DNA of 64,000 nt from Candidatus Sulfotelmatobacter sp. (GCA_030040965.1 JASHOT010000280.1:9420-73419); one strand, 5' to 3'; positions 2,300 through 32,931 are shown, numbered from the stretch's first letter. The notes: generated by a model not told the origin, from the letters alone. Translations and numbers: made by a program.

Positions 2300-2316
2300 T
2301 TGGAGACGGGCGTGCG
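2300..2316 (+). promoter_or_regulatory. sigma-54-type -24/-12 promoter candidate TTGG-AGACGGG-CGTGCG upstream of hemA
   Basis: GG-N10-GC spacing is exact. Same TTGG-N7-CGTGC motif as three other sites. The GC lies 54 nt before the hemA ATG at 2369. Confidence 0.5.
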
Positions 2317-2368
2317 ATTTAGAAGGGTGCAACCTGCGTCTGAGGTGTCATCTTTGGAACCCACTCTC

Positions 2369-3721
2369 ATGGTAATCGGCCTGAACCACTCGACGGCCTC
2401 GTTGCCCATGAGGGAGCGATTCTGGATCGGGGAAAACGCACGTTACCAGGTTCTGCGCCAACTCAAGAGCGCCGAGGGAATTGAAGAACTCGTCGTTCTT
2501 TGCACGCGCTGCCGCACCGAATTTCTGATATGGGCGAGCGATCCGACCCTCGCCGCCAATTCTCTCCTCCGATTTCTTGGCGCCCAGCACGGACTGAAGT
2601 TGACAGAGTGGCAGCACTTTTACCGCCGGCTCGATGATTCGGCTATCTCCCACATTTTTCGCGTTGCCTCAGGGCTGGATTCGCTGGCGTTGGGCGAACC
2701 GCAAATGGTTTCGTACCTCAAGTCCGCCTGGGAGCAAGCGCAAACAGTGGGGGCTGCGGGACGCTTTCTGAACGCCCTCATCGAAAAAGCTCTGCAGGTT
2801 TCGACCCGCGTACAGCAGGAAACCGCGGTTGGGAAATTGGCCGCTTCGATTCCCGCTGTGGCTCTGGATCTGGCCAGTCAGGTTTTCGGATCTCTGGAAG
2901 GACGGAAAGTGTTACTGCTCGGCACGGGAAGAATGAACGAGCTTTCCGCCCGCGCCTTGGCTCAGAGAGGCGCTGGATCGCTGGTCGTCATCGATCAGTC
3001 CTCCAGCCGGGCGCAGGAGATGGCGGAAAAGCTGGGCGGCACCGTAGCCCCGTTATCGGAGCGCTGGAGTTGCATGTTGCGCGCCGACATCGTCATCAGC
3101 GCCACCGGCTGTCCGCACGCGGTGCTGACCCGCGAAGAGGCCGAGCGGATTGCGCAGGAGAGGAACCGCGTGCCGCTGGTGATTCTGGACATCGCGATCC
3201 CGCGTGACGTGGATCCGGATGTGCATCGAGTGGATGGAATCGTTCTCTACGATCTTGATGGCCTGGAGCGTGCCGCGCGAGTGAATACCACCGAGCGTGC
3301 TGGCATCGCGTCTGAAGCGGAGAAAATCGTCTCCGAAGAAGCTCAGGCATTTCGCAGCCAGCTTCAGAGCCAGCCCGTGCTCCCAACCAGCGTTGCGCTG
3401 CGTCGCAGGCTGAACGAGATTTGCCGGCAAGAACTGGAGTCCTTCATTGAGGAGCGGGGGCCGTTTACTCGGGAGCAGGATCAATCACTTCATGCTGTAG
3501 CTGCCCAGCTCATACAGAAGATTGCCAACTCTTTGGCTCGGGAACTCAAAGAACTTCCAGAAAGGGCAGAGCAGGAGCGCATGACGGCGGCCGTTACGCG
3601 CCTGTTTCATCTCGATTCGTTGAAAGCGGATTCGGCGCCAAGGGCGCTTGCCGGCACCAGATCGGAAAAGAAGGAAAGGAGAGAAGGTGGCGAAGAACGC
3701 GCAGTCGCCATCAATTTCTAA
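2369..3721 (+). CDS. hemA: glutamyl-tRNA reductase
   Basis: MVIGLNHSTASLPMRERF... is a typical HemA N-terminus. An NAD(P)-binding GTGRM segment and a C-terminal dimerisation helix are present. The track ORF begins at 2219, but M51 (2369) matches family N-termini and lies downstream of the predicted promoter. Confidence 0.9.
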   Translation: MVIGLNHSTASLPMRERFWIGENARYQVLRQLKSAEGIEELVVLCTRCRTEFLIWASDPTLAANSLLRFLGAQHGLKLTEWQHFYRRLDDSAISHIFRVASGLDSLALGEPQMVSYLKSAWEQAQTVGAAGRFLNALIEKALQVSTRVQQETAVGKLAASIPAVALDLASQVFGSLEGRKVLLLGTGRMNELSARALAQRGAGSLVVIDQSSSRAQEMAEKLGGTVAPLSERWSCMLRADIVISATGCPHAVLTREEAERIAQERNRVPLVILDIAIPRDVDPDVHRVDGIVLYDLDGLERAARVNTTERAGIASEAEKIVSEEAQAFRSQLQSQPVLPTSVALRRRLNEICRQELESFIEERGPFTREQDQSLHAVAAQLIQKIANSLARELKELPERAEQERMTAAVTRLFHLDSLKADSAPRALAGTRSEKKERREGGEERAVAINF

Positions 3722-3770
3722 CTCATTCCATTCGTGATTGGCGCTTTTCATAATTCCTCATACCAGCGCC

Positions 3771-3803
3771 AAAGGGCTTCCCCAGAAGGGAAGCCCTTTT
3801 TCT
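3771..3803 (+). terminator. rho-independent terminator after hemA
   Basis: AAAGGGCTTCCC-loop-GGGAAGCCCTTT hairpin followed by TTTTCTT. Confidence 0.7.
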
Positions 3804-3828
3804 TGGGATTCGAACGTCGCATTGTGTT

Positions 3829-3844
3829 TGGTGAGTACAATCAC
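3829..3844. promoter_or_regulatory. weak palindrome family member TGGTGAGTACAATCAC(G)
   Basis: GTGAG-TACA-ATCAC. Shares TACAATCACG with the 2105-2120 site. Lies 273 nt upstream of the lipoprotein gene. Confidence 0.3.
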
Positions 3845-4116
3845 GTTTCAGACGCTACTGGACTGTGCGAGAGGTTTGACAATTATCGACAAAATTCATA
3901 ATCGGTTTACAAAAATCGGACTACGATAAAGCTGCTGCAGGTTGTGTCGGATTGACTAGCTGCTAATGGAACGAAGGGGAGTGGGCCGATCATCGCTTCA
4001 AGCGATTGCTCCAAGCGAAATTGCTTCAAGCGATGGGTTCAGCGCAACTAGTCCGACCTCATGGTTGGACACGACAATTCACGGTTTCGTAATCGGCCGC
4101 TTGCTCGGAGGAAGTT

Positions 4117-5754
4117 ATGAAACTGTCCGCTTCGTCTTCCTGTTCCCACTTTTTGTCCTATTTATCTCTTGTAAGTCTGCTCGCTTTCGCGCTGGCCACC
4201 ATTGGGTGCGGTTCGGGTGGAGGTGCAAAGACTCCTCCACCTCCGCAATTCAGCGGAAATACCAACGTGACGGTCGTGGCATCGAGTACGGCCAACGACC
4301 AACTCTCGCAGTTCGACCTTCAGATACAGACGTTGACCTTGACTGGCCAGTCAGGAAACACGGTCAATGTCTTGTCAGGGAGTTGGGAGACGGAATTCAT
4401 GCATGTCAACGGATTGGTCCAGCCAATTGCTACCGTGAGCATTCCACAAGGAATCTATACGGCCGCTACTGCGGTGATCGGGGGCGCAAGCTTTACGTGC
4501 GAAACCGTAATGCCGGCTGACTCGGACACGCCCGGCAACCTTGACGAGAGCACCTATGCCTACGGTTACACTCCGAATTCCCAGGTCGCCGTGAATCTTC
4601 CATCGCCAGTCACGATCACGGGAGACAGCATGGGATTGGTGGTGAATCTGCAGGTTTCACAGTCGGCGAGTTTTCCCAGCACCTGTTATCCGCCTAACGG
4701 GGGGATCGCCAGTTTTTCGATTACTCCAACGTTCAATCTAACTCCGGCTACGTTTACCACGCAGGCGACAAGCCCCGCCAACGGCAAGGTCACCGAACTC
4801 GAGGGGCAGGTGAGCGCGTTGGCGTCGGCGGGAAGTGGGTTTACTTTGGCCGTGAGCGGACCGGATTACACATTCGACCAGACCCTGACCGTGGCCGCAA
4901 ACGGCAATACCGTCTATCAGGGACTCAGCAACCTTTCCGCGCTGCAGGTGGGCACATTCGTCGATATGGATGGAGCTCTTCAAGCGGATGGTTCTGTACT
5001 TGCCACGCGAATCGCAAGCTACGATCAGAGTGCCCTCAATGTCATGATCGGCCCGCTGCTGCAACTGGCGGCTTCAGCGCCGGATTTCTACAGTTTTCCA
5101 TCCGAGCAGCAAGGCCAAACGTATTCCCAACCGTTGGGTTCACAAGGCTTGGGGATTTATTCGTACTCGGATACCACTTCGTTTCAGATTTCCGGCCAAA
5201 TGAGCAATGTAAACAGTCTGCCCTTTGCGGCGAGCTTCACTAGCGGCAATATGGTCACGGGGCAGAATGTGGCTGTTTTTTCGGGACCGATCACCGCCTA
5301 CTATGGGGGCGAGTACAACGCCGCGACAACTATTGCCCTGATGCCGCAAACAATCGATGCCACCCTTGTAGGTTCTGCTACAAGCGGCAGCTTTACCGAT
5401 TACACCGTTTCGCTTGCATCTTATGACCTGTTTCCGACGCTGGCTGTGCAACCGGGGCAGACCACGGTGCTCAGCAAACCGGGCGAGGTCGAAGTCTACA
5501 TTGACAACAACACGCAAATGCTCAATACGCAGTCGCTGACGTCGGGTGGAACGTTCCGTTTCTACGGGCTGGTTTTCAACGATAATGGAACGCTGCGCAT
5601 GGATTGCGCCCAGGTGAATGACGGTGTGGCGTTCACGCCGCCTTCCAGTTCGAATAGCCAGAGACTCGCGCGGCCTGGCGATGTGCAAACGGTTCGTCGT
5701 CCCGGAGTCGCGGGGTTGCAGCCGACATTCAGAACATTCACGCGGCCCGAGTAG
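4117..5754 (+). CDS. secreted lipoprotein, DUF4382-like N-terminal domain plus DUF5666-like repeats (function unknown)
   Basis: Signal peptide with lipobox LATIGC followed by GSGGG. SD GGAGGA 5 nt upstream. Paralog of 5790-7397. Domain names are from memory of family patterns. Confidence 0.8.
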   Translation: MKLSASSSCSHFLSYLSLVSLLAFALATIGCGSGGGAKTPPPPQFSGNTNVTVVASSTANDQLSQFDLQIQTLTLTGQSGNTVNVLSGSWETEFMHVNGLVQPIATVSIPQGIYTAATAVIGGASFTCETVMPADSDTPGNLDESTYAYGYTPNSQVAVNLPSPVTITGDSMGLVVNLQVSQSASFPSTCYPPNGGIASFSITPTFNLTPATFTTQATSPANGKVTELEGQVSALASAGSGFTLAVSGPDYTFDQTLTVAANGNTVYQGLSNLSALQVGTFVDMDGALQADGSVLATRIASYDQSALNVMIGPLLQLAASAPDFYSFPSEQQGQTYSQPLGSQGLGIYSYSDTTSFQISGQMSNVNSLPFAASFTSGNMVTGQNVAVFSGPITAYYGGEYNAATTIALMPQTIDATLVGSATSGSFTDYTVSLASYDLFPTLAVQPGQTTVLSKPGEVEVYIDNNTQMLNTQSLTSGGTFRFYGLVFNDNGTLRMDCAQVNDGVAFTPPSSSNSQRLARPGDVQTVRRPGVAGLQPTFRTFTRPE

Positions 5755-5789
5755 ATTCAGGCAGAGGTTCGGCGGAGGACGGAGGAATT

Positions 5790-7397
5790 ATGAGTTCCCT
5801 ACGATTTGTCCCGCGTATGTTTTCGTCCGAAAAGTTTGTTCTTACGCTGCTGGTCACTGTTTGGTCTGGACTAACCACTAACTGCGGCTCGGGTGGAAGC
5901 ACATCGAAAACTGCACCTTTATCTGGAAGCACGCAGGTGATGGTCGTGCTGACGAGCACGGCCAACGATCAGTTGTCGGAATTCGACCTCGGTTTTCAAA
6001 GCCTCGCGTTGACGAGCCAGTCGGGCAAAACGGTTACTCTGCAATCATTGCCTACCTCAGGACCGCCGTTGGACGCCGAGTTCATGCACCTGAACGGTAT
6101 GGCTCAGCCACTGCTGAGCGTGACGGTTCCGCAGGACATCTATACAAGCGCAACGGTCACGCTGGGCGGGGGTGCCTTTGTGTGCATCGCCCTTGGTCAG
6201 ATCGATGGGGAACAGACCCTAAGCTCGGCCTATTACACCCTCTACCCACCCACGGCGACCGTGAACTTCCCATCGCCTCTTACTGTGACGGGTACGAATA
6301 TGGCTCTGTCGCTGGACCTGTTAGTATCGCAGTCCGCCACAATAGGCGACTGCGTGAACGTCGACGGATTCACTGGTTTTTCGATGGCACCGACCTTCAG
6401 TCTTACACCGTTCACTTTGGCCGCCTCACCGACGAATTCGGCGAATGGCAAAGTGTTGGGGATCGATGGAGAGATCACAGCGGTCGGTTCCAGCGGCACC
6501 AGCTTAACGTTGTCGCTGCCCAACTACGTGCCTTCGGTGACAGGGCTGCCAGTTTCTGTTCAGTCCAACAGCAACACCGTGTATCAGGGAATTAGCGGCT
6601 TTTCCGCGCTGGCAGCAGGCACGTTCGTCAATATGGATGGTGCGATCCAGTCCGATGGTTCTCTCGTGGCGACGCGGATTGCGGTGGAAGATCCTTCTGC
6701 CGTAGATGTATTCCGCGGTCCGCTGATGCAGGTGGCAGCTTCGGTGCCTTCATTCTTCATGCATGCTCGCGAGATGCAGGGCGCTGGCATGCCCGGGTTC
6801 GGAAGCGGCGAAAATATGGCGTTCTACTACAGCGGTTCAGCTTTTCAGATCTCCCAACAGCTATCGAATCTGGGCAATCTGCCGTTTGTACCAAGTTTCA
6901 ACGCTTCAAACATGGTGCCCGGACAGGAGATATATGTCTCTGCACCCTCCATCCCGGAAGGCGGCGGCTATCTCACGGGGAGCACAGTCACGCTCATGCC
7001 ACAAACAGTTGATGGCACGGTCGCCGCGTCCTCAAGCGCCGGCAACTTTACGATTTACACAATCTCGCTTGCGTCCTATGACCTGTTTCCTATGCTGGCG
7101 GTGCAGCCCGGGCAAACCACGGTTGAGAATGATCCGAGCCAAATCGAGGTTTATGTCGACAGCAATACGCAAATGATCAACACGCAGTCGCTTTCTTCGG
7201 GAGGCACGTTCCGCTTCTATGGGCTGGTTTTCAACGATAACGGCACGCTGCGCATGGATTGCGCGGAGGTGAATGACGGCGTGGCTTTCACCGCTCCGTC
7301 GAGTTCAGGAGGTCAGAAAGTCGGGACCATCCAGATAGAACGCCGGCCGGGCGCGACCGGCGTGCAGCAGGTGGTAACCACTGTGACCACTCACTGA
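5790..7397 (+). CDS. secreted lipoprotein, paralog of 4117-5754
   Basis: Lipobox LTTNC followed by GSGGS. Colinear similarity with the upstream gene. Near-identical C-terminal ~90 aa (TFRFYGLVFNDNGTLRMDCA.VNDGVAF). Confidence 0.8.
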   Translation: MSSLRFVPRMFSSEKFVLTLLVTVWSGLTTNCGSGGSTSKTAPLSGSTQVMVVLTSTANDQLSEFDLGFQSLALTSQSGKTVTLQSLPTSGPPLDAEFMHLNGMAQPLLSVTVPQDIYTSATVTLGGGAFVCIALGQIDGEQTLSSAYYTLYPPTATVNFPSPLTVTGTNMALSLDLLVSQSATIGDCVNVDGFTGFSMAPTFSLTPFTLAASPTNSANGKVLGIDGEITAVGSSGTSLTLSLPNYVPSVTGLPVSVQSNSNTVYQGISGFSALAAGTFVNMDGAIQSDGSLVATRIAVEDPSAVDVFRGPLMQVAASVPSFFMHAREMQGAGMPGFGSGENMAFYYSGSAFQISQQLSNLGNLPFVPSFNASNMVPGQEIYVSAPSIPEGGGYLTGSTVTLMPQTVDGTVAASSSAGNFTIYTISLASYDLFPMLAVQPGQTTVENDPSQIEVYVDSNTQMINTQSLSSGGTFRFYGLVFNDNGTLRMDCAEVNDGVAFTAPSSSGGQKVGTIQIERRPGATGVQQVVTTVTTH

Positions 7398-8878
7398 GTG
7401 GATGAATTTTCGGAAGGAACTGGTTCCGAGTTCTCCTCTTCGCCCGCGGGGACGAGTTCAAACTTTTTCAGTTTGTAGCGCAGTGCGTCGCGGCTGATGT
7501 CGAGCAGACGCGCGGCGTGAGTTTGATTGCCCCTCGCCTGTCGCATGGCCAGTTCGACCATGGCGCGCTCAACCTCTTCGAGCGAGGTTCCTTCCTCCGG
7601 GATGTAAAGCCGCGGCAGCACGCGTCCGTTGGAAAGTTGTTTGCCCCCTCCGTCGGCGGAAGCGCTGCTGTGCTCAAAGGCGGTCAAGCCGCTGCGGCCC
7701 GATTCGCCCACCGCAAACGGAAGATACACCGGGCGCAGAATCGATTCTTCTTCCAGAATCATGGCGCGCTCAATCGAGTTCTTCAGCTCACGGACATTCC
7801 CTGGCCAGTTGTGCGCCAGCAGCAGCCGCCGTGTCTCGGGGCTGATGCCGCGAATCGACTTCTTGAACTTGCGGTTGTACCAGGTAACAAAGAAATCGAC
7901 GAGCGGGAGAATGTCTTCCGGCCGCTCGCGCAGCGGCGGAATGAAGATGGCGATAATCGCGAGCCTGTAATAAAGATCCTGGCGGAAGTGGCCTTCACGC
8001 ACGGCTTTTTCCAGGTCGCGATTTGACGCGGCCACCACGCGCACATCCACCTGCAGATCCCGCACTCCACCGACCCGCCGGATCACCTGATCCTCGAGCA
8101 CACGCAGCAACTTCGCCTGTAACAGCGGCGAAAGCTCACCAATCTCGTCGAGGAACAGTGTGCCGCCATGCGCGGTTTCGAACAGGCCTTTCTTCATGGC
8201 CTTGGCGTCGGTGAATGCGCCTTTCTCGTGGCCAAAAAGTTCGGCCTCCATCAGCGTTTCAGGAATCGCCGAGCAGTTGATGGCTACGAACGGGCCGTTC
8301 TGTCGCGAGCTGTCGTAGTGGATATTTTTCGCGATAAGGTCTTTGCCGGTGCCGCTCTCCCCCTGAATCAGAATCGTGGTTGCCTCGCTGGCCGCCACCT
8401 TCTGCACGAAGCTCATCAGTTCGATCGTTTTCGGCGCGACGGCAACTACATCGTGATAACCCGTGCTGCGCCGGACCTCGCCCCGCAGCGACTGCACTTC
8501 CGTGCGCAGCCGGCTGGCTTCAAGCGCGTTCTGGATGGTGACGTGAAGTTCCTCGAAGTCGAGCGGCTTGCCGACAAAATCGTAGGCGCCGAGTTTTAGC
8601 GCGGTTTTGACGTCATCCAGCTGCGGATCGGCGGTGATCATGATGACCGCTGGGGCGTCAGGATTCTTCTTGACCTGCTCGAGCACCTGAATGCCGTTGA
8701 TGTCGGGCATGCGCACATCGAGCAGAATGAGGTCGGGCGATTCGCTTTGGGCGAGCCGAAGACCGGGCTCACCCGAAGGCGCCTCGACAATCTGGTATCC
8801 CCATTCCTCACACTTCTGCCGCAGGGACCAGCGCACCAGGCGCTCGTCATCGACAATCAGGATTTTCTCCGCAGCCAT
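7391..8878 (-). CDS. sigma-54-dependent response regulator (NtrC-family enhancer-binding protein)
   Basis: Receiver domain (ILIVDDE..., LILLDVRMPD). AAA+ sigma54-interaction domain (GESGTGK, GAFTDA). C-terminal Fis-type HTH (GNQTHAARLLDISRDALRYKLKKF). Confidence 0.9.
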   Translation of the reverse strand: MAAEKILIVDDERLVRWSLRQKCEEWGYQIVEAPSGEPGLRLAQSESPDLILLDVRMPDINGIQVLEQVKKNPDAPAVIMITADPQLDDVKTALKLGAYDFVGKPLDFEELHVTIQNALEASRLRTEVQSLRGEVRRSTGYHDVVAVAPKTIELMSFVQKVAASEATTILIQGESGTGKDLIAKNIHYDSSRQNGPFVAINCSAIPETLMEAELFGHEKGAFTDAKAMKKGLFETAHGGTLFLDEIGELSPLLQAKLLRVLEDQVIRRVGGVRDLQVDVRVVAASNRDLEKAVREGHFRQDLYYRLAIIAIFIPPLRERPEDILPLVDFFVTWYNRKFKKSIRGISPETRRLLLAHNWPGNVRELKNSIERAMILEEESILRPVYLPFAVGESGRSGLTAFEHSSASADGGGKQLSNGRVLPRLYIPEEGTSLEEVERAMVELAMRQARGNQTHAARLLDISRDALRYKLKKFELVPAGEEENSEPVPSENSSTQ

Positions 8879-9032
8879 GCCCTCGATAGCTTACTACGAC
8901 GAGAGGCAAAATGGGGCTCTGCGCGGGCTGGATTGAGGGTGTCTCTATTTGGAATGGGTTTCCAGCGGTCCCGTACGAGATATAGGTTTCTCGAAAAGGA
9001 CTTTCGAAGAATGTCGGACGATTTTTTGATCG

Positions 9033-10298
9033 TTAGGCGGCTCCGGTCGCGGCACGCTCGAGGGGCAGAACTACTGAAAAAGTGCTTCCCTTACCGATTG
9101 CGCTAGTCACATCGATACGACCTTGATGTTCTTCCACGATGCGTCGGGCAAGAGATAATCCCAGTCCGGTTCCATCGCCCTTGGTCGTGTAAAAGGGACG
9201 AAAAATGTTGGGCAGCGAACTGGGCGAGATGCCGCGCCCGTTGTCTTCGATTTCGACAACGGCGGTCATTCCTTGCTGCTTGACCGTAACTTCGATCTTG
9301 CCGTTCGCGTCGATCGCCTGCAGAGCATTGAGCAACAGGTTCAGCAGGACCTGATGAATCTGATCGCTGTCGTGCTCGATTTCTGGAAGGGAACTGTCCT
9401 TGTGCAGGATGATGTTGACCGATTTTGCCAGCGCTTGCTGACGTCCCAGCATGACCGCGTGTTCGACGGTGGTGTTCAGATCGCTTTTACGCACGGCGGG
9501 AGGATGTGGCCGCGCCGTCTGCAACAGATCACTCACAATATGATTGATCCGTGCGATCTCCTGTCGAACATCTTTCACGACCGCGCGCGCGGGACTGGTA
9601 GGGGGCAGATCGCGCCCTATGATTTCAATCACGCCTGCGATTCCTGCGAGCGGATTACGGATTTCATGAGCCAGGCCGGTCGCCAGTTCGCCGAGAGTGG
9701 CGAGGTGTTCAGCACGTGACATCTGGGTGCGGTGCAGCCGCTCGATTTCTTCGCGGCTTTCGCGCAACTGTTCGACCATCTGATTGAAGTTGCGGCCGAG
9801 ATCTCCGATTTCGTCATTGCGGCGCGAAAAACTCACCGATGCCGTCAGATCGCCCGCGCCCACACGCGAAATCTTCTGTTGCAGCTCGACCATCGGACGC
9901 TGCACTGTGTACGTGAGAACGACCAGCAAAGCCCCGCAGATGGCAACTGCACCCGCACCCGCGACCAACAACACGATATGCCGCTCCGGATCGCGCCAGG
10001 AAAGCGTCGCCAGAAGAAAAAGCAGAAGGCCGCCCAGCAGCACGCAGGCAATCGGGACCAGCGCTTTGATTTCCCAGTTTATGCCGAACCACGATAGTTC
10101 GGGATTCTCCATTTTTGGAGCGCCAATGTCTGCCATTGCCGTTCCCGTCGCGCTGGCGTACCCGGTGCTGAACGATCTCCGGCGGGTGGGAATGATGGAC
10201 TCTACGTCATCCGATTCGGGTTGTGGCGCGGGGCTCGTCATTTCCTTGTTTATCTCGTACCTGGCCGTGTTGTCTTCGACCGTCTCAGGCATAAGCAT
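9033..10298 (-). CDS. sensor histidine kinase with HAMP domain and almost no periplasmic loop (intramembrane-sensing type)
   Basis: Two TM helices separated by ~6 residues (RDPERH). HAMP domain, H-box LAHEIRNPL, and HATPase boxes DNGRGI and GTGLGLS. The start overlaps the ccsA stop by 14 nt. Confidence 0.85.
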
Positions 10299-11718
10299 GC
10301 AATCCGGGGAGCAGGTACGTCACTCCGAAGAAGGTAAACATCACAACTGCGAAGCCTCCCACGGCAAAGTAGGCGGCGACGCGGCCTCTCATGCCACGCG
10401 TAATGCGCATGTGCAGATAGGCCGCGTACACCAGCCAGGTAATCGCCGCCCACGTCTCTTTGGGGTCCCAGTTCCAGTAGGAACCCCAGGCCCGATTGGC
10501 CCAGTAGGCGCCGGCGGCAATCATCAGGGTGAGCAGAGGGAAGGCAATGCAGATGGTTTTATAGGTGATGCGGTCCAGGTCGTCAGAGCCGGGCAGAAGC
10601 CGCTCCAAGTCCTGGCGCCGCCATAACAGCAACAGATAAAGCAGGTTGGCAAAGATTCCTCCGACCAGCGCCGAGAGAATGAATGGGCTCGCCGCCAGGC
10701 TGGTAGCGAAGAGGCCATCGGCATCGAGCGAAGGATAACGCCCGTCGCGCGCCCGCAGCACGAAAAACACCAGCGCGAGCGATTGCAGCAGGATGCTGAT
10801 GAACACGGCGCGATTCGCAGTTGCGATCAGGCCGTCGTTCTTCTTCGCCAACGCGAAAATGTAGAGCGCCAGGGGCGCGGCAACAGCGGCGAGAACCAGA
10901 ACCATCAGCCAGCCGAGATCGGGAATCGTCACGAACAGCCGCACTCCCCGCGAAAGAAAGACTTCCTGCTTGTTATCCGCGTCCCAGGCCACAACGTTCA
11001 GTCCGCCCCAGCGTTCGAAGCGAGTCAGTATCGCGGCATAAACTCCCACCGTAAAAATGCTGGTCGCGGCGAGGAAGGTCTCGGTCTTCATTTTGTCCTG
11101 GATAAGAAACATCATGGCAAGCGCGAAGCTCAGCGCGCAGGCCGCATAGGCGAGCATGGCCAGTGTGACGTGCACGTGCAGCCATGTAGATTGCAGCGCC
11201 GGGACGAGCGGCCGAACGTCGCTGCGCAGAAGCTGCATCAGCACCACTCCGACAATGGCGACGGGCATGGTGACCGTGCCGATAACTTTTACGCCGTAGC
11301 GTTTCTCGGCGATCAAGGTGAGCGCGGCCAGCGTCCATACAAAACTCAGCAGCATTTCATAGAGGCTGGCAAAGGGCGGATGTCCCGCCTCGTACCAGCG
11401 ATGCGCAACCGCGCCGGTATTGGCAATCAGCCCAGCCCAGGTCGAAAGCGAAGCAAACTTGATGTACGACTCGGTCCCGGTGACGCCGAATCCGAGATAT
11501 AGAGCTCCAGCGCCCGCGTAGAACACCAGAGCCGCGTAGAGCAGGTTGGCCTCACTGGCCAGATTTCCGTTTTTCACCACATTCAGGAACGCGATGAACA
11601 GTAGGAACGCGATGCTCAATCCCACCCCCACGACCAGCGTGGTGCCGTTTGCAGCTTCTGCGCGTCCTCTTGCGATCTCTGCTCTTGCCATATCCACAGT
11701 CCTCCGTTGCCGGCTCAT
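10285..11718 (-). CDS. ccsA: cytochrome c biogenesis System II haem-handling protein CcsA/ResC
   Basis: Polytopic membrane protein with the tryptophan-rich [14 protein letters not shown] motif. Sits directly after resB. Confidence 0.85.
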
Positions 11719-11733
11719 CTTCCGGCGCGTGCG

Positions 11734-13185
11734 TTATCCTCGGATCGCCGCGGCTTTTGGTTCTTCAGCCGCTTCCGCCGATTTGGACTTCAGATCCTTC
11801 TGAATCTGCGCCACGACATCTTTAAACTTCTGCTCGAATGCGTCGCGGTTGCGGTTGGCCGTTCCTCCAACCCAGAGCATGGAGTGGCCGCGCGCGTCGA
11901 TGACCGGAACGACCCACAACCTCACGTGCGAGACGTAGAACACGAAGGTCAGGCCGATGGCCATCAGCACCACTCCGGCCCATACCGACCACTGTCCCGG
12001 CTCATGCGAAACCTGCAAGCCGGTGAACAGCCCCGTCTTCAGGTCTTTGGGCTGAAAAATGTAGGGGGAAGCTGCATTTTCCGCAAAGCCCTGAATCTCC
12101 GGAAGCCAGACATTGACTGCTTTGTTCGCCTTCTTTGAAGTCACGATCATGTGAACCGCGGGATTCACCACATCGTTGCTGCGCGCGTAGATGTGGCCAT
12201 CCTGGACGACGAAGTCGGGAATGAACTCAGTCAGTTCCACGGTTGTGTCGGAATCAAGCGGAACCGGCTGATTCAAAGAGAGCGCGATTTCCTGCGCCTT
12301 GCCGGTCTTTTCATCGATGGGTGTAACATCGAGCGTCAATTTGTCGAGCTTCCCGGTCTGACCGAAGCTGGACTGGTAGAAGCGGACACCGTGATAACTG
12401 AGAGGATCGTTTACGACGATTTCTTTGCGCGAAACTTCGCGCCCGTTCTCCACCACGGCCAGCTTCGACCACCATTTCTTGGGAGAACCGTCGGCGTAGG
12501 TTTCCTCCCCGGTGCCGTCGCAGCGGATGGAGAAGGGAATTGTTTTGGTGGTACCGGTCTTGATTTCGATCTGGTTGCTCGACGTTCCCGGAGTCAGCAT
12601 CAGAAACCCGCGCCAACCGTAGAGCGCGTCGACGATTCCGCCGAGGAAAATCAGGAGCAGGCTGGCATGCACGATGTAAACCGCCATCTCGGAAATTCGG
12701 TGGCGCTCGGAGAACAGCGAAAAACTGTCGGTGCGGACGATCCGCTCGGAATGAAAGCCCACATGCTTGAGAGCCCGCTCGGCGGCGCTCAATCCTTGCT
12801 CTTCGTCATCGATCCTGATCTGCGCCTGTGTCGGCAAGGCACGGCGGAAGATGTCGTCGGGACTCTTATAAGGCCGCGCGAAATAACGCCAGGCGTTGGG
12901 GAAGCGCTCGACCGAAGCCGCGATGATGCACAGGCTTACCAACACCAGGAGCGCGACAAACCAGCGCGCGTGGAACACGTCGGTCAGTCCGGTTACGTCC
13001 AGAAAGCGCAGCATAGCCGGAGAGTAAGCCCGCTGCATGTCGTCGGGATCGATCATTGGGCGCTGCAGAATCACCGTGCCCGCAGCGGAAAAGATGACGC
13101 ACAAGATAATGAGAATCACGCCGGTCTTGATCGAACTCAGCGTCCGCCACAGTTTTCGTGGTGCAGTTTTCATTGACAGGGCCAT
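11734..13185 (-). CDS. resB: cytochrome c biogenesis System II protein ResB/Ccs1
   Basis: N-terminal TM helices, a large extracytoplasmic domain and a C-terminal TM. Adjacent to ccsA. SD GAGGAAG before the ATG at 13185. Confidence 0.8.
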   Translation of the reverse strand: MALSMKTAPRKLWRTLSSIKTGVILIILCVIFSAAGTVILQRPMIDPDDMQRAYSPAMLRFLDVTGLTDVFHARWFVALLVLVSLCIIAASVERFPNAWRYFARPYKSPDDIFRRALPTQAQIRIDDEEQGLSAAERALKHVGFHSERIVRTDSFSLFSERHRISEMAVYIVHASLLLIFLGGIVDALYGWRGFLMLTPGTSSNQIEIKTGTTKTIPFSIRCDGTGEETYADGSPKKWWSKLAVVENGREVSRKEIVVNDPLSYHGVRFYQSSFGQTGKLDKLTLDVTPIDEKTGKAQEIALSLNQPVPLDSDTTVELTEFIPDFVVQDGHIYARSNDVVNPAVHMIVTSKKANKAVNVWLPEIQGFAENAASPYIFQPKDLKTGLFTGLQVSHEPGQWSVWAGVVLMAIGLTFVFYVSHVRLWVVPVIDARGHSMLWVGGTANRNRDAFEQKFKDVVAQIQKDLKSKSAEAAEEPKAAAIRG

Positions 13186-13226: not shown

Positions 13227-13243
13227 TGCACGTGCCCCGCCAA
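13227..13243 (-). promoter_or_regulatory. sigma-54-type promoter candidate TTGG-CGGGGCA-CGTGCA upstream of resB-ccsA-HK-EBP
   Basis: Exact GG-N10-GC spacing on the minus strand. The GC lies 43 nt before the resB ATG. Motif shared with 2300, 31963 and 32915. Confidence 0.55.
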
Positions 13244-13351
13244 CTCGGGCTGAATCATTAACATCCGCTGAATCAATGTCTTGAAGATTGTTTCTGCAAG
13301 GAAGAGCGAGTTGGAATGAGCCAATACACTCATTCCCGCCGGAATTCATGT

Positions 13352-13420
13352 TGTGATTTCACCCACTGCAAGTCCTGTGATTTCAATCACAAATCCGGGA
13401 ATGAGCTGTGTTATTTCACC
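13352..13420. promoter_or_regulatory. operator/UAS array: perfect 16-mer TGTGATTTCAATCACA (13376-13391) flanked by two half-site-like copies (TGTGATTTCAC at 13352, TGTGTTATTTCAC at 13407)
   Basis: Read directly. Located in the divergent resB / cytochrome operon control region. The same 16-mer occurs at 33140 and as its reverse complement at 28099. Confidence 0.6.
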
Positions 13421-13592
13421 AGTTCGATTGCGGGAGAAGGCCCATTCGTACTACGCCACTGGGTACTGTGGAAATCGGCATCAGTCGGTGATGAGTTTCT
13501 CATCTGCTTTGTTTGCAGTTATTTGCGGAAATTCCACAGACTGAGGGATTTGGCCACAGGTAAGGGCACGCGCATGCACATGCAGAAGTGGC

Positions 13593-16372: not shown

Positions 16373-16401
16373 GGTTTGGCTGTTCCGCGGATAGCCAAAC
16401 C
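16373..16401 (+). other. intra-operon stem-loop GGTTTGGCT-N11-AGCCAAACC with no U-tract
   Basis: 9-bp perfect stem immediately after the NHL gene stop, in the only sizeable gap (122 nt) of the operon. Confidence 0.3.
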
Positions 16402-16494
16402 GGGGCTGGTGCAAGCCGGCTCCGGGCTGCAAGCGCAGTAATAGAAGTAGCGGTGGAAGTAACAGCTGTTACAAAACAGGAGGTTTCATACGGT

Positions 16495-17517: not shown

Positions 17518-17583
17518 CCGTTGAAATGGGGGAGGGAGATGGTCTCTCCCCCGTTTTTCCAGAGCTCGATTGAAGGAATCGCA

Positions 17584-18672: not shown

Positions 18673-18761
18673 AGCGGGCAGCCAATGGCGCATGGAGATT
18701 GATGTGGAAGTTGCGCCAGGGCATGGGGGAAGAAATCAGGTGGGGCATGCCGCGGGAATGG

Positions 18762-28098: not shown

Positions 28099-28114
28099 TG
28101 TGATTGAAATCACA
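28099..28114. promoter_or_regulatory. perfect palindrome TGTGATTGAAATCACA (reverse complement of the 13376 and 33140 16-mers)
   Basis: Read directly. Lies between the divergent giant NHL gene and the membrane-protein gene, 107 nt before 28221. Confidence 0.55.
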
Positions 28115-28220
28115 GCGCTGGTCGCGCGCAGCTTTCCAGGCGCGTAAAGCCTTCTCTCACAACGGGATGGTCCGCGCAGTATGAGCGTAGGAGGATTGAT
28201 TTAATCGGCTACAATGTCGC

Positions 28221-29741
28221 GTGCCTTCAACGTCCCAAATGCAGGATTCTACCTCGCTCGCGGGGCGGTATTCGCCGAAATCAGCACTGCTGCGGGTTGT
28301 GGCGTTGGCCGTGCTGTTCTCTGCAGCGGCGGTTTATGAAGCGGCGAGTCTTTCTGCGTTTTCCGCGCCGCAGCTCTGGCTCCATCTGCGCACCGGCTTG
28401 TGGATGTTGCAAAATCATGCGCTTCCGCGCACCGGGCTGTTCTCGCAGTATTCCAACCTTTCCTGGCACGATCCCAGCTGGCTCTTTGATCTCCTGCTCG
28501 GTGGGGCCTATCGTCTGCTGGGCCTGCGAGCGATCGCGATCCTGCTGATGCTGCTGAAGGTCGCTCTCGCTGTCGTTACTTTTCTTCTGGCGCGGGCCAT
28601 GCGGGTAAGTTGGTGGGCAGCGGTAGCTCTCTCAGCACTCGCGCAGTATGCCATTGCCCATCTGCAGCCGGTTCCTTCCGTTGTTTCAATTCTTTTCTTT
28701 GCGCTGGAGTTTAGACTGCTCATTCGCTCGCGGGCGACAGGTTCAACCCGAGACTTGTTCTGGCTGCCGCCGTTATTTCTTCTTTGGGCCAACGGGGACA
28801 ATCAATTCGGCGTGGGATTGATTCTGCTTGGACTGTTCCTCATCTCTTTGCTGATCGAGCAAGCGCTGAGAATGCGGCACCCGGTATGGATCAGTCCGGG
28901 CATCGTGCCTGTCAACCCTGCGAGGGTCGGCGCCGTGACCGTGCTTTCTCTGCTGGCAACATTCGTGACTCCGTACGGATTTCATCTCTTGCCCGAGGGA
29001 TTCAAGGCACTTTACAGCGATGTCGGCTTCGAACATTTCTCGGAAATGAGCGCCATTGCCTTCCGCACTCCGCAGGAATATGTGTTGATGCTGATGGTCA
29101 TGATTGCATTCCTCACGCTGGGCCGTCGGCGCTCGCTGGCGCTGTTCGAATTGATGATTTTGCTCGCAGGAACGGCCCTTGCTTTCCGCATTGAACGCGA
29201 TAGCTGGATCGCGGTTCTTGCGGCGATTGCGATCATTCCCTCTGCTTTCACAGAGAGCGACTGTGCTGCCGAATCTCTTCAACGCAGCCTACGCGGCGGG
29301 ATTGCCGCGACAGCAGTCATCGTCTTGATTGCGCCGCTGTTCGTTCCGCGGTCGGATGTGTTGATGGCCAGGATCGCGCGAAATTTTCCCGTGGCGGCGT
29401 GCAATTACATACGAGAGCATCATCTGCCGCCGCCACTTTTCAACGCATATTCATGGGGAAGTTTTCTGACGTGGTATCTGCCGGAGTATCCGGTAGATGT
29501 CGACAGCCGCGTGGAGTTATACGGAAGCGACCGGCCGAGCAAGTATTTTGACGTAATCGGCGGTAAGGAGCGACTGGAATCGTATCCCGATGTGTCGCGG
29601 GCTGGCACGCTATTGCTGGAACGAGAGTCGGCGATGGCAAAGGCACTCACGACCTTGCCCGCGTTGAGCGCGCGCTATCGGCTGGTGTACAGCGACGATC
29701 TGGCAGACGTATTCGTTCCTGTAGAGCCGCCTCTCCAGTGA
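28221..29741 (+). CDS. polytopic membrane protein with C-terminal extracytoplasmic domain (putative GT-C-fold glycosyltransferase, function unknown)
   Basis: Many hydrophobic helices. Paralog of 29763-31304, with shared motifs (W.HL..G...., LF.LW.N..QF..GL, S[FY].WG.FL..Y.PEYPV..D.R..LYG). GTG start at 28221 or ATG at 28239. Confidence 0.65.
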   Translation: MPSTSQMQDSTSLAGRYSPKSALLRVVALAVLFSAAAVYEAASLSAFSAPQLWLHLRTGLWMLQNHALPRTGLFSQYSNLSWHDPSWLFDLLLGGAYRLLGLRAIAILLMLLKVALAVVTFLLARAMRVSWWAAVALSALAQYAIAHLQPVPSVVSILFFALEFRLLIRSRATGSTRDLFWLPPLFLLWANGDNQFGVGLILLGLFLISLLIEQALRMRHPVWISPGIVPVNPARVGAVTVLSLLATFVTPYGFHLLPEGFKALYSDVGFEHFSEMSAIAFRTPQEYVLMLMVMIAFLTLGRRRSLALFELMILLAGTALAFRIERDSWIAVLAAIAIIPSAFTESDCAAESLQRSLRGGIAATAVIVLIAPLFVPRSDVLMARIARNFPVAACNYIREHHLPPPLFNAYSWGSFLTWYLPEYPVDVDSRVELYGSDRPSKYFDVIGGKERLESYPDVSRAGTLLLERESAMAKALTTLPALSARYRLVYSDDLADVFVPVEPPLQ

Positions 29742-29762
29742 AAGTTTATTTCCGCTTGGCAG

Positions 29763-31304
29763 TTACCAGTTGCGGGCGAGAACCAGCGCGATCTCGTCGC
29801 GATAGATGACGCGAAAGCGGCGGTCGGTCAAAAGCATCTGCGCAATCGGTAATTTGCGCTTGAGCAGGACGACTCCAGCCTCATTGAGAATGGGGTCGGT
29901 GAGATACGATGGCTCGGCTTCCTGCGTGGCATGGTAGCGCTGATCCATGGCATCGCCGTAGAGATCGGTGCGGCCGTCCATCGACACCGGATACTCGGGC
30001 ATGTAGAAGATCAGGAAGCCGCCCCAGTCAAAGCTGTTGTAGAGCGGTCCTCCCACTGGATTGCGTCGCAGAAAATTTACGGCGTCCACCGGATATTCGC
30101 CGCTGATCGCGTGGTCAAGGCCGCGCTGATTGAAATCGGTGTTGCGAAGCGTCAGCAGTAAAAGGAAGATGCTGGCAACAACCGCGGTCGCCCATCCTGA
30201 AAGTCGAATCGATGGCGTCTCGCGTTCTGTGGAAGGGAAGTCAGCAATAATCGCAGCCGCGGTGACACAGATGAACCAGGTGTCGCGCCAGGTGCGAAAG
30301 GCGAAGACACTGGCAAAGATGAGCAACGCCAGTTTGAAGGGATCGAGTTTCTTCTTCCATCCCAGAGCGAAATATGCCGTCACCGCCAGCAGCAACTCAA
30401 TCCATTGATGAAAGAAGGCAAAGCTCAAGGCCTGCAATTCGCGGATCATCGAGTACATGACCTTCGATCTGGAGATGACGATCGCGTGCTGGTACAAGTG
30501 AAATGAGTAAGGGCTCGCACAGCCTGCAACAACACAGCAAGCGAGAACGATGAAGGGCTCCATCACGGGAACCGACGAAGGCTGCAGATAATCTGGATAG
30601 ACGCGCGACGAAATCGCGAGCCGCTTCAGAAGATTCATGCCAGCAAAAAGTCCGATGACGGCCAGCCCATAGACGAATTGAATGTGAACGTTTGCCCAGA
30701 TGAGAAAGACGAGAGGCAGCCAATAAAGCGGTCTCGCTTGGCCCGTGTGTTGTGCCTCGAAGAGTTGCGTCAACAAAATGGTGTACAAGATCACGGTGAA
30801 AAAGACCGGCCGCGGCGCGATGTTAAATAGAAATCCGAGATAGGCGACGATCGAAAGCGCCCACGCGACCCAGAATCGCCCTGAGATTCGATAAAGCATG
30901 CGAAAGACAGCCATTGCGACGGCGATCGTGAGCGCGGTGCCAAAAAGGCCCAGGCCCATGAAACTCCACCAATCGTAGGCAGGAGAGAGCAGAACTTCGT
31001 AGCCCCAGCTGTAGGCCATCCACGAATGATCGGCGGCGGTGCGGGAAAAGATTCCGTTGTGCGGGAAGGCGCGGTGCTGGACGATCCAGTCGCCCACACT
31101 GAGATGCCACCAGATATCAGGATCGAGCACGGAAAGCTTGGTGAGAAAGCATTCGCTTCCCACGCCAAGAATAAGGAGGACGATTGCGAAGATGCGCAGA
31201 GCGCGCAATCGGAACAGATCGAGGATCTCCTGCGCGGCGCTCATCGGTCGCCGAGCCTCAGGCCGGTCGGGGGCGGGTACGGTGGATGGGTGCATTGCGG
31301 ACAT
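29763..31304 (-). CDS. polytopic membrane protein, paralog of 28221-29741 (putative GT-C-fold glycosyltransferase)
   Basis: Colinear similarity to the convergent neighbour. ATG at 31304 chosen (MSAMHPS...). The track start at 31319 is a TTG. Confidence 0.65.
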   Translation of the reverse strand: MSAMHPSTVPAPDRPEARRPMSAAQEILDLFRLRALRIFAIVLLILGVGSECFLTKLSVLDPDIWWHLSVGDWIVQHRAFPHNGIFSRTAADHSWMAYSWGYEVLLSPAYDWWSFMGLGLFGTALTIAVAMAVFRMLYRISGRFWVAWALSIVAYLGFLFNIAPRPVFFTVILYTILLTQLFEAQHTGQARPLYWLPLVFLIWANVHIQFVYGLAVIGLFAGMNLLKRLAISSRVYPDYLQPSSVPVMEPFIVLACCVVAGCASPYSFHLYQHAIVISRSKVMYSMIRELQALSFAFFHQWIELLLAVTAYFALGWKKKLDPFKLALLIFASVFAFRTWRDTWFICVTAAAIIADFPSTERETPSIRLSGWATAVVASIFLLLLTLRNTDFNQRGLDHAISGEYPVDAVNFLRRNPVGGPLYNSFDWGGFLIFYMPEYPVSMDGRTDLYGDAMDQRYHATQEAEPSYLTDPILNEAGVVLLKRKLPIAQMLLTDRRFRVIYRDEIALVLARNW

Positions 31305-31320
31305 GAGTTTCAGCCACAAC

Positions 31321-31938
31321 TCACTTGAATGCGAACGACGACAGGATCAGCCGAAGCGATTGTCGCGCATTCTCCGCCTCGGAATCCGGCGGAAGCGAAG
31401 ACATCGGAGTCCCGGATTCATCGCTCAACGAGACTGCGATCCGCAGTTCGTAACAATGCTCTTTCTGAAACGACCTGTACAAATATAAGCTCTGCAAGTG
31501 CCCGGCAACTGTTTTTTTGACGGCAGCATAGCGAAAGATGAGCCCATTGATAGTAATGGATGAAGGCTGGACTTGATCTCCGTGCTCGCGGCTGAAGCGG
31601 TCGGAGTAAGCCAGGCACTCCGCCTCGGCGTTTGAACCGCGACCGGCATCCACAGAAAATCCCGCAGCTTCGAATCTAGTGTTTTCGACATCGTCGAACG
31701 GATAGATTACGCAAACCAGAGCAGTGGCGAAATCGCAGACAGGAATTGCGAGATGCCGGCCCTGCGTAGCCTTCAAGATACGGTCGCCGACCAGAAGTTG
31801 GTAATTCTCAGGATAAATAAACTGAAATGCATCGTCGGGACTGTTGAAGGTTTCGAGGGACGGTGGTTCTTGCGCGACTGCCATGGAAGAAACAAAACAC
31901 AGCACGAAACCGATGAAAGCGATATTGAGCAGCTTCAT
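31321..31938 (-). CDS. secreted protein of unknown function (205 aa)
   Basis: Signal peptide MKLLNIAFIGFVLCFVSSMAVAQ. Its stop is 16 nt before the start of the downstream membrane-protein gene. Confidence 0.6.
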   Translation of the reverse strand: MKLLNIAFIGFVLCFVSSMAVAQEPPSLETFNSPDDAFQFIYPENYQLLVGDRILKATQGRHLAIPVCDFATALVCVIYPFDDVENTRFEAAGFSVDAGRGSNAEAECLAYSDRFSREHGDQVQPSSITINGLIFRYAAVKKTVAGHLQSLYLYRSFQKEHCYELRIAVSLSDESGTPMSSLPPDSEAENARQSLRLILSSFAFK

Positions 31939-31962
31939 AATAAGACCATCGAAGCTGATCCG

Positions 31963-31979
31963 TGCACGCGGTCTTCCAA
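31963..31979 (-). promoter_or_regulatory. sigma-54-type promoter candidate TTGG-AAGACCG-CGTGCA
   Basis: Exact GG-N10-GC spacing on the minus strand. The GC lies 26 nt before the ATG at 31938. Confidence 0.5.
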
Positions 31980-32090
31980 ATGTTTAGGGTGTTCTCATGG
32001 GCAGGAGCATTGAATCCGTTAAAGCGTTGCAGCGAGAGAATGTGGGTTCGATAGTTGAGGACCTCAAGCAAGGGAGAAATCGCTCCTGTC

Positions 32091-32106
32091 AGTGAGCGAT
32101 TTCACG
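32091..32106. promoter_or_regulatory. imperfect palindrome AGTGAGCGATTTCACG (GTGA-N6-TCAC)
   Basis: Read directly. Lies ~120 bp upstream of the 31963-31979 promoter candidate. Confidence 0.35.
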
Positions 32107-32217
32107 CACGCGAAAGGGAGTATTTTCGAAGCGTTTACGCGCTCAATGCAACGTTAACGCCGATCGCAGACAATTGTTCTGTTTAGGTTGGACCGTTTTC
32201 CGGATAGCCCGCGTGGC

Positions 32218-32883
32218 TTACATGGCGGGCTTATCAGTTTTCGTCCCAGGAGCGATGCTGAGGTGGCGCTTCGCCTGCGCCATCATCTGTTCAACTTCGG
32301 GCCGTTTCGGACTCTTGGGTTCGAGTTTCAGATAAGCTTCCCAGGCGGCGATAGCCGCCTTCGGATCGGCTTTTCCCTTCCACTCAAAATAGCCGAGATT
32401 GAAGAGTACTTTCGAGTTTTTCGGATCGATCTTGTGGGCGCGGTTCAGGGTGGCAATGCCTTTATCAAGGTCGCCCAACTTCACATAGATGAAGGCCAGT
32501 TCGTTTAATGCATCCGGCTGCGGCTTGACCGATGCCGCTTCCTCCAGATATTGCTGAGCGCTCTGAAATTGCTGAGCGGACAGGTACGAGTGGCCAATTT
32601 GCGCTAAAAGATCGGCATCTTTCGGATTTTTCTGCAACTGTTCAAGCAAAGGAGCAACCTGCTTATCCGCCATGCGCTTGAGATCGGCGGCGCTGGGCAT
32701 GGGATGCGGAGGGTTGCCCGGCGCCGGAGCTGGCGCGACTGCCGACGTGGTGGCTCCTGCGCTAGCCGTTGCCGGTGCATGCAGCAGATAGCCGGCGGCT
32801 ATGCCTAGCATGAGGCAGATCACACCCATGGTGAAGGTTTGTGTGTTATTCCAGGTCTTTAAGCTTTGATCGCTGGTTTCCAT
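32218..32883 (-). CDS. membrane-anchored TPR protein (CcmI/CycH/NrfG-like periplasmic TPR module)
   Basis: N-terminal TM (FTMGVICLMLGIAAGYLL), Ala/Pro linker and TPR repeats. C-terminal ...AIAAWEAYLKLEPKSP...PGTKTDKPAM. Paralog of 33221-33922. Confidence 0.7.
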   Translation of the reverse strand: METSDQSLKTWNNTQTFTMGVICLMLGIAAGYLLHAPATASAGATTSAVAPAPAPGNPPHPMPSAADLKRMADKQVAPLLEQLQKNPKDADLLAQIGHSYLSAQQFQSAQQYLEEAASVKPQPDALNELAFIYVKLGDLDKGIATLNRAHKIDPKNSKVLFNLGYFEWKGKADPKAAIAAWEAYLKLEPKSPKRPEVEQMMAQAKRHLSIAPGTKTDKPAM

Positions 32884-32914
32884 TTTGCGTCGTTCCTAAG
32901 TTCAAGTACGTTGG

Positions 32915-32931
32915 TGCACGCCGAGTGCCAA
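32915..32931 (-). promoter_or_regulatory. sigma-54-type promoter candidate TTGGCAC-TCGG-CGTGCA (best -24 match in the window)
   Basis: TGGCAC is a perfect -24 element. GG-N10-GC spacing is exact. The GC lies 33 nt before the TPR gene ATG at 32883. Confidence 0.6.

Follow-up and report, generated by a model that had tools for sequence, protein, structure and literature searches.

Candidate sigma-54 promoters upstream of hemA, resB-ccsA and two envelope operons in Terriglobales-type Acidobacteriota

Classical NtrC-type sigma-54 promoters, such as glnAp2 and nifH, combine a -24/-12 element with GG-N10-GC spacing, an upstream dyad box and an integration host factor (IHF)-like site between the two, and they are served by an activator with REC, AAA+ and HTH_8 domains plus its cognate kinase. 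The same arrangement can be recognised in a stretch of 64,000 nucleotides from Candidatus Sulfotelmatobacter sp. (GCA_030040965.1 JASHOT010000280.1:9420-73419; hereafter, the window), where four motifs with -24/-12 geometry precede hemA, the resB-ccsA operon, a TPR gene and the gene of a secreted 205-aa protein (Sec205). The locus differs from the classical systems in its putative targets, which are hemA, System II cytochrome c maturation and envelope genes instead of nitrogen, flagellar or stress functions, in a -12 box that reads GTGC as often as TTGC, in the GAFTDA loop of its activator, and in being known from sequence alone.

A second described system is close in gene content. The Bacillus subtilis resABCDE operon (reference B99 of PMC2700814) co-transcribes maturation genes with ResD-ResE, the controller of respiration genes, and ResD is an OmpR-family regulator that works with the housekeeping sigma factor. 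The window shares with it the succession of resB and ccsA (resC), a kinase and a response regulator in one operon and, probably, autoregulation together with the control of genes related to heme and respiration. However, the regulator of the window is NtrC/AtoC-like, with a sigma-54 AAA+ domain, and is not of the OmpR/ResD type, and the gene order is resB-ccsA-kinase-regulator, without resA. We regard the resemblance to the res operon as that of a functional analogue and not of a family member.

Sigma-54 has also been connected with cytochromes. In the Desulfovibrio DVU3142/ohcBAC system, comparative genomics predicted sigma-54 promoters before multiheme cytochrome operons, with the dedicated activator adjacent (PMC4641369). 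In Geobacter, ResB/ResC pairs are kept beside multiheme cytochrome genes; the RpoN regulon of this genus (consensus TTGGCACGGTTTTTGCT) includes sigma-54 control of cytochrome genes, and the study describing it does not mention hemA, heme or ResB (PMC2725144). In these bacteria the cytochromes themselves are targeted, whereas here the targets would be the biosynthesis and maturation machinery (hemA, resB-ccsA). Our literature search retrieved no paper in which hemA or resB/ccsA depends on sigma-54, and none that treats the sigma-54 regulons of Acidobacteria. The initial annotation of the window had called sigma-54 control of hemA unusual, which agrees with this lack of precedent and has to be tempered by the cytochrome genes already known under sigma-54. 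What we describe adds a new regulon to a promoter class that is already well understood, with no new mechanism; since the mechanism is the standard sigma-54 paradigm, the advance lies in the content of the regulon and not in a principle.

We consider it likely, from sequence comparison, that the four motifs are enhancer-dependent sigma-54 promoters forming a small regulon in Terriglobales-type Acidobacteriota. The motifs, conserved across dozens of uncultured soil Acidobacteria, are very probably genuine promoters of this type, and they would put hemA, resB-ccsA and two envelope operons under a common enhancer-dependent switch. The promoters and genes concerned are the following (ranks refer to the lineage matrix described below).

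2300..2316, plus strand: candidate sigma-54 -24/-12 promoter of hemA, GG at 2302-2303, GC at 2314-2315, predicted transcription start site (TSS) ~2327
13227..13243, minus strand: candidate sigma-54 -24/-12 promoter of resB, ccsA, the kinase and possibly the activator, predicted TSS ~13216, rank 2
31963..31979, minus strand: candidate internal sigma-54 -24/-12 promoter of Sec205 and the 518-aa membrane protein, predicted TSS ~31952, rank 5
32915..32931, minus strand: candidate sigma-54 -24/-12 promoter of the TPR gene, predicted TSS ~32904, best generic match in the window, rank 1
2354..3721, plus strand: hemA, glutamyl-tRNA reductase (Pfam GlutR_N, Shikimate_DH, GlutR_dimer), initially annotated at 2369-3721
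7391..13185, minus strand: four-gene operon of resB, ccsA, histidine kinase and activator (Pfam)
11734-13185, minus strand: ResB (Pfam)
10285-11718, minus strand: CcsA (Pfam)
9033-10298, minus strand: HAMP/HisKA/HATPase histidine kinase (Pfam)
7391-8878, minus strand: NtrC-type activator with REC, sigma-54 AAA+ and HTH_8 domains (Pfam)
29763..32883, minus strand: row of three genes for the TPR protein, Sec205 and the 518-aa membrane protein (gene calls and synteny)
32218-32883, minus strand: TPR protein
31321-31938, minus strand: secreted 205-aa protein with signal peptide (Sec205)
29763-31319, minus strand: 518-aa polytopic membrane protein

The initial annotation had reported four oriented intergenic copies of TTGG-N7-CGTGCR (TTGGNNNNNNNCGTGCR) with -24/-12 geometry, and a pattern search of both strands of the whole window returned exactly four matches. 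All of them fall in non-coding sequence, which makes up 11% of the window, all are oriented toward the next gene, and the GG-N10-GC spacing is exact in each copy. Among dinucleotide-preserving shuffles the mean was 0.62 matches, and four were reached in 1 of 100. Agreement with the extended consensus TGGCAC-N5-TTGCW was graded with an approximate generic sigma-54 matrix: the 32915 site was strong at 13.2 bits (rank 1 in the window), the 31963 and 13227 sites were moderate at 10.2 and 8.8 bits (ranks 17 and 55), and the hemA site was poor, staying under 8.6 bits, below the matches listed. Most generic matches in the window fall inside genes, and three of the four sites are unremarkable in their own genome; we discarded this matrix, applied to the window alone, as evidence for those three because it does not separate them from the coding background. 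The pattern itself was drawn up post hoc, and the single-window statistic would not have been convincing by itself. As generic scores were weak and the pattern post hoc, a comparison with related genomes was needed.

A CcsA scan of species-representative genomes yielded 80 loci at a CcsA identity of 76-87%, all of them from metagenome-assembled genomes (MAGs) of Acidobacteriota (Terriglobales, 'Ca. Sulfotelmatobacter'). Querying metagenomes with the 518-aa membrane protein gave 80 further loci, for 160 related loci overall. Conservation was counted on non-redundant loci (78 for resB, 31 for hemA, 13 for the TPR gene and 11 for Sec205). Both GG and GC were kept in 77/78 resB, 31/31 hemA and 13/13 TPR loci; for Sec205, GC was kept in all 11 and GG in eight. 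Promoter columns carried 1.0-1.5 bits of information, against 0.2-0.4 bits in the flanks. The initial sigma-54 reading, for which the window offered the geometry, is thereby strongly supported: -24/-12 elements with GG/GC stand at orthologous positions before resB, hemA, TPR and secreted-protein genes in nearly all related loci, between essentially unconserved flanks. The base at -15, which gave the initial motif its unusual look (CGTGC in place of TTGC), alternates between G and T among orthologs, and GTGC is as frequent as TTGC in the -12 box of this lineage.

Since each site was the best matrix match in a search window, we controlled for the effect of selection. At the sites, best generic scores averaged 9.7-12.3 bits across the four families (with the approximate matrix), compared with 3.0-5.3 bits on the antisense strand of the same search window and 1.4-3.5 bits in a 100-nt control window elsewhere in that intergenic region. 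Loci above the 95th percentile of their own shuffles were 67/78 for resB, 27/31 for hemA, 13/13 for TPR and 10/11 for Sec205. A 21-nt lineage matrix, built solely from sites of other genomes, ranked the window sites 1, 2, 3 and 5 among ~128,000 positions on both strands, and its sole comparable match lies within a gene, at 49084. Two intergenic matches of this matrix, at 45082 and 45169, were set aside, having no gene downstream on that strand. A possible fifth sigma-54 promoter at 33175-33190 (GGGCACAATCCCTGCA), proposed by the generic matrix, was rejected, as its orthologs lack the GC.

In the individual families, resB orthologs carry TGGCGCGGAACGTGCAtt in close relatives and cTGGCGTGGAACTTGCATTT in distant ones, at virtually every locus, with a median GG-to-ATG distance of 42 nt. 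The TPR orthologs (58-77% identity) show TTTGGCAT-N5-CGTGC in 13/13 loci, 33-137 nt from the start, and most Sec205 orthologs have TGG(C/T)A-N6-(G/T)TGCA 32-39 nt before theirs. In five resB upstream regions (L008, L011, L016, L018 and L026), two overlapping -24/-12 registers are present (TTGGCGCGGAACGTGCATTGCA), the second being CGGAAC-N5-TTGCA, offset by 6 nt.

The resB orthologs read TGGCGCGGAACGTGCA, and the GGAAC contained in it is what could suggest that the element is read by a factor other than sigma-54, either an extracytoplasmic function (ECF)-type sigma or the repressor or activator of an operator overlapping an unrecognised sigma-70-type promoter; to our knowledge, housekeeping promoters of Acidobacteria are poorly characterised, which leaves some room for such a reading. 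The hemA, TPR and Sec205 families, however, lack GGAAC and nonetheless keep GG-N10-GC and TGGCA(C/T)-N5-(T/G)TGC, and no conservation appears 16-17 nt downstream, where an ECF -10 element is expected. The G/T alternation at -15 is tolerated by a sigma-54 -12 box, and an activator gene stands within the operon. On these grounds we dismissed an ECF-sigma reading of the resB GGAAC, and a non-sigma-54 factor seems very improbable.

The four non-homologous promoter families have a second element in common, an oriented 14-bp imperfect dyad box (GnGTGATATnCCnC, consensus ~TGnGTGATATnCCnC), located 110-130 nt upstream of the -24 element, which corresponds to roughly -135 to -155 relative to the predicted TSS. 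Together with IHF-like sites, the candidate upstream activating sequences (UAS) of the window are the following (ranks from a box matrix trained without the window sequence).

2191..2207, plus strand: candidate UAS box of hemA, CGCGTGATATACCGCAG, rank 2, 110 nt upstream of GG, in a block conserved in relatives
13349..13365, minus strand: candidate UAS box of resB, TGGGTGAAATCACAACA, rank 3, 123 nt upstream of GG
13406-13422, minus strand: second, weaker candidate box of resB, rank 5, ~180 nt upstream of the -24 element
32092..32108, minus strand: candidate UAS box of Sec205, TGCGTGAAATCGCTCAC, rank 1, 130 nt upstream of the promoter
33041..33057, minus strand: candidate UAS box of the TPR gene, TGGGTCATATGCCCCGC, rank 8, 126 nt upstream of the promoter
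13271..13283, minus strand: IHF-like site of resB, CAAGACATTGATT, between UAS and -24, sole exact YAANNNNTTGATW match in the window
2251..2263, plus strand: IHF-like site of hemA, TAACTCACTGAAA, upstream of the -24 element

The boxes ranked 1, 2, 3 and 8 in the window are each located 110-130 nt before one of the four -24 elements and share its strand. The box at 32092..32108 forms an inverted repeat with 32074-32085, and the TPR orthologs keep the block GGGTGATATnCCCC. The core GTGAWAT was found on the sense strand between -140 and -70 in 49/78 resB, 12/31 hemA, 5/13 TPR and 4/11 Sec205 loci, where at most 0.5 were expected. A box matrix obtained from one family had its best match at -150..-60 in most loci of the other families: 29/31 for hemA and 8-11 of the 11-13 loci for TPR and Sec205, with resB a weaker test set (38-57/78). 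These cross-family scores were 8-13 bits, versus -3 to 4 in shuffles. IHF-like matches with up to one mismatch occurred in 22/78 resB loci (0.8 expected), in one orientation only. More generally, the IHF consensus was enriched and orientation-specific at -75..-20 in three of the four families (resB, hemA and TPR), and the orthologs of hemA and of the TPR gene conserve a block aa..cTGAAAAca near -50..-35. UAS, IHF-like site and -24/-12 element, as predicted, make up the classical enhancer architecture, in which activator sites stand ~80-200 bp upstream and frequently have an IHF site between them and the promoter.

These results bear on two other explanations. The first is that the four motifs are functionless chance matches: the pattern is post hoc, 1 in 100 shuffles did reach four copies, and similar generic scores are common inside genes. 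Yet up to 78 divergent loci preserve the motifs in orthologous places, between flanks that are not conserved, and each motif is paired with a second conserved box, by which we consider chance effectively refuted. The second accepts sigma-54 promoters but not a single regulon, with different activators encoded elsewhere and the local pair controlling other genes or its own operon. Such activators are numerous in Acidobacteria, the families vary to some extent in their box consensus, and what links this activator to the promoters is co-location plus one covarying locus. On the other hand, the same oriented box stands at the same distance in four non-homologous families, and the pair is syntenic with resB-ccsA (kinase in 79/80 loci, activator in 63/80). 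Separate activators appear unlikely to us, and the single regulon proposed in the initial annotation is strengthened by the dyad box common to all four promoter families.

The enhancer-binding protein that the initial annotation had placed in one of the four operons is indeed encoded at 7391-8878: Sigma54_activat (E=1.5e-67) accompanies Response_reg and HTH_8, and the other gene calls (hemA, resB, ccsA, kinase, TPR and signal-peptide protein) also held. The sigma-54-contact loop, of the GAFTGA type, reads GAFTDA in the window and in 60/60 orthologs, a variant among those compatible with activation and present in a Desulfovibrio activator listed as sigma-54-dependent (PMC4641369). The kinase has two transmembrane helices separated by a loop of ~8 aa and followed by HAMP, and no periplasmic sensor domain. 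Across the 80 loci, synteny retained ResB in 80, the kinase in 79 and the activator in 63, and the usual order is a divergent cytochrome, resB-ccsA-kinase-activator and then, often, a TPR gene and hemA. A search of the minus strand between kinase and activator found no terminator-like site. The activator may also be transcribed from its own promoter, a possibility raised by the gap between the two genes (154 nt, and wider in many relatives).

The covarying locus is L031 (8430-8545 and 11400-15000), where both the kinase/activator pair and the sigma-54 site of resB are missing, each of them in this locus only; this single case links the kind of promoter to whether the two-component system is there. 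In L031, unrelated genes (HMGL-like, DinB and LexA) come after ccsA, and the resB upstream region contains a CRP-type palindrome, TGTGACCCTTGTCACA, then 22 nt and TAAAGT. The resB reading frame of L031 seems interrupted, which may be an assembly error or a pseudogene.

The CRP-type palindrome is a second motif of these regions. GTGAT-N4-ATCAC has exactly five matches in the window (1578, 2106, 13377, 28100 and 33141), all intergenic and all parts of longer exact palindromes.

1577-1592, 2105-2120, 13376-13391, 28099-28114 and 33140-33155: exact TGTGAT-N4-ATCACA

Allowing one mismatch there are eight matches, versus 1.5 expected, one of them at 3831-3844. The palindrome precedes the radical SAM gene at 382-1497 and the gene at 28221. 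At class II CRP/FNR promoters, a 16-bp TGTGA-N6-TCACA site is centred ~41.5 nt upstream of the TSS, ~22 nt before the -10 element. The divergent TPR gene at 33221 shows this geometry in 14 orthologous loci (palindrome, an invariant 22 nt of variable sequence, GA(C/G)AAT), with no sigma-54 site found in its orthologs, and so does L031 resB. We therefore rejected the palindrome as the primary UAS of the activator: it stands at class II distance at 33221 and in L031, both without a sigma-54 site, it is not in the Sec205 family, and at hemA it fits a divergent promoter of a small open reading frame (ORF). It lies -142..-149 from the resB -24 element and -185..-192 from that of hemA, and no consistent helical phasing of these distances was found. 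Given the class II geometry and the small-ORF fit, the palindrome is better read as the site of a different regulator. Its sites seem to define a second regulon, intermixed with that of sigma-54, with which there may be cross-talk; among the genes of the window, none for a CRP/FNR protein was identified. Upstream of resB, close relatives also strongly conserve a block, ATGAGTGT(T)ATGGCTCAT (13315-13334, minus strand), ~85 nt upstream of the -24 element, at whose position distant relatives carry TGTGATATGGCTCACA, of CRP type; the block may serve as a second enhancer site or be bound by another regulator.

Several points weigh against four sigma-54 promoters under one activator. Besides the post hoc pattern, the approximate matrix and the weak generic scores mentioned above, loci within a family are phylogenetically related, so that the counts are not independent events, and GG is missing in three of the 11 Sec205 orthologs. 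An RpoN-box search, uninformative on this matter, turned up no rpoN gene, either in the window or among the 160 loci; RpoN was present in 3/3 Acidobacteria genomes surveyed (PMC3372290). The GTGA half-site of the box also occurs in the CRP-type palindrome of the same regions, and the assignment of the box to the 7391-8878 activator, and of the palindrome to another regulator, is tentative. The 154-nt gap before the activator gene counts on the same side, as does the hemA promoter of the window, which has lost the CAC of the -24 box (TGGAGA in place of TGGCAC), to which its generic score, the lowest of the four, is due.

The window copy at hemA may thus be a weak or decayed promoter. In the stronger form of this explanation it is a decayed relic, with hemA transcribed from another promoter and the other three sites functional, and the TPR gene that stands beside hemA in relatives is indeed missing from the window. 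But GG, GC and their spacing are kept at the orthologous position, both the IHF-like block and the rank-2 upstream box are preserved, and the lineage matrix places the site third in the window. A complete relic is in our view improbable, and we retain hemA as a probable member of the sigma-54 regulon. Its orthologs carry TTTGGCAC-N5-(T/G)TGC in 31/31 loci, ~64 nt before the formerly assumed ATG, and in the window GG lies 52 nt before a TTG codon. The hemA start is most likely this TTG at 2354 and not the ATG at 2369: the five codons before the ATG (start, E-P-T-L) show third-position variation in relatives, as coding sequence does, the start codon alternates between TTG, GTG and ATG, and GAGG is found ~7 nt upstream. 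With this start the motif ends 37 nt, instead of 53 nt, before the gene, which corrects the hemA value among the motif-to-start distances of the initial annotation, and with a TSS near 2327 the predicted leader would measure ~27 nt. An Rfam scan of the window matched no RNA family, so that no known riboswitch or small RNA accounts for the long stretch upstream of hemA.

Around hemA, relatives have the TPR gene directly after it (33-42% identical to the window TPR protein at 32218-32883), and the window has a 395-nt gap followed by two DUF5666 paralogs (4117-5754 and 5790-7397), which stand before the convergent activator gene, within 3722-7397. On the other side, the radical SAM gene at 382-1497, which the CRP-type palindrome precedes, is AhbD-like. 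Between this gene and hemA lies a small ORF of 29 hydrophobic aa (MKIVKLAIAIAMIAVALFVMIPNLSWATR; 1884-1973, minus strand), transcribed away from hemA, with 63-78% identity in at least 12 related loci and probably driven by the palindrome at 2105-2120 and a conserved GAAACT.

In the envelope genes, the TPR promoter at 32915..32931 probably also serves the genes further downstream. The metagenome loci show the order GDSL, TPR2 (divergent), TPR, (Sec205) and membrane protein. Neither the 29763-31319 product, initially labelled GT-C, nor the secreted protein had a Pfam, NCBIfam or PDB sequence match. The genes at 29763-31319 (minus strand) and 28221-29741 (plus strand) are convergent and encode polytopic proteins of 518 and 506 aa, ~30% identical, with a DPD...WW motif in the first loop; the product of 28221-29741 likewise had no Pfam, NCBIfam or PDB sequence match, and the initial GT-C label is plausible but putative.

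The regulon genes adjoin a multiheme-cytochrome cluster. Divergent from resB, the region 13593-23682 encodes multiheme cytochromes, NHL propellers, a PpiC isomerase and a predicted outer-membrane protein. Among the relatives (L004-L080), roughly one in two has a separate sigma-54-type element, TTTGGCAAnnnTTGTGCC, before the predicted outer-membrane beta-barrel gene of this cluster, frequently accompanied by the upstream box, which would extend the regulon into the electron-transfer cluster in other species. The homolog in the window (18762-20606; 63-68% identity class) follows an 89-nt gap without a sigma-54 element.

Starting from the observed conservation, spacing, common upstream box and co-occurrence with the kinase/activator pair, we propose a mechanism in which sigma-54 dependence, the identity of the activator, autoregulation, the signal and the TSS are predictions. 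Sigma-54 RNA polymerase would bind each -24/-12 element as a closed complex, and the NtrC-type activator would bind the 14-bp dyad box 110-130 nt upstream of -24. A DNA bend at the intervening IHF-like site would bring the activator to the polymerase, its ATP hydrolysis would open the promoter, and the transcript would begin ~12 nt after the GC. The activator is most likely the response regulator at 7391-8878, phosphorylated by the adjacent kinase, of the two-transmembrane, intramembrane-sensing type. Since kinase and activator would be co-transcribed with resB-ccsA, the system would autoregulate, as first proposed in the initial annotation. The output would couple HemA, the committed step of tetrapyrrole synthesis, with System II cytochrome c maturation (ResB/CcsA), and would include the membrane-anchored TPR protein, the secreted protein and the polytopic membrane protein. 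More tentatively, and with considerable doubt, the kinase may sense the load or state of CcsBA heme export/ligation in the membrane, feeding back on hemA and resB-ccsA.

If the proposed regulon is real, this would be the first description that we found of hemA and System II maturation co-controlled by sigma-54 and a dedicated two-component system, and hemA would not necessarily be a housekeeping-sigma gene. The hosts are widespread uncultured peat and soil Acidobacteria carrying large multiheme-cytochrome clusters. The promoter matrix, the candidate enhancer box and the candidate activator make the regulon testable, and they could serve to annotate the regulation of respiration in hundreds of MAGs. 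Should the feedback on hemA and resB-ccsA also hold, it would constitute a homeostatic loop that matches tetrapyrrole supply to the demand of cytochrome c maturation, in hosts that make very heme-rich extracellular electron-transfer proteins, and an independently arisen sigma-54 counterpart of Bacillus ResDE.

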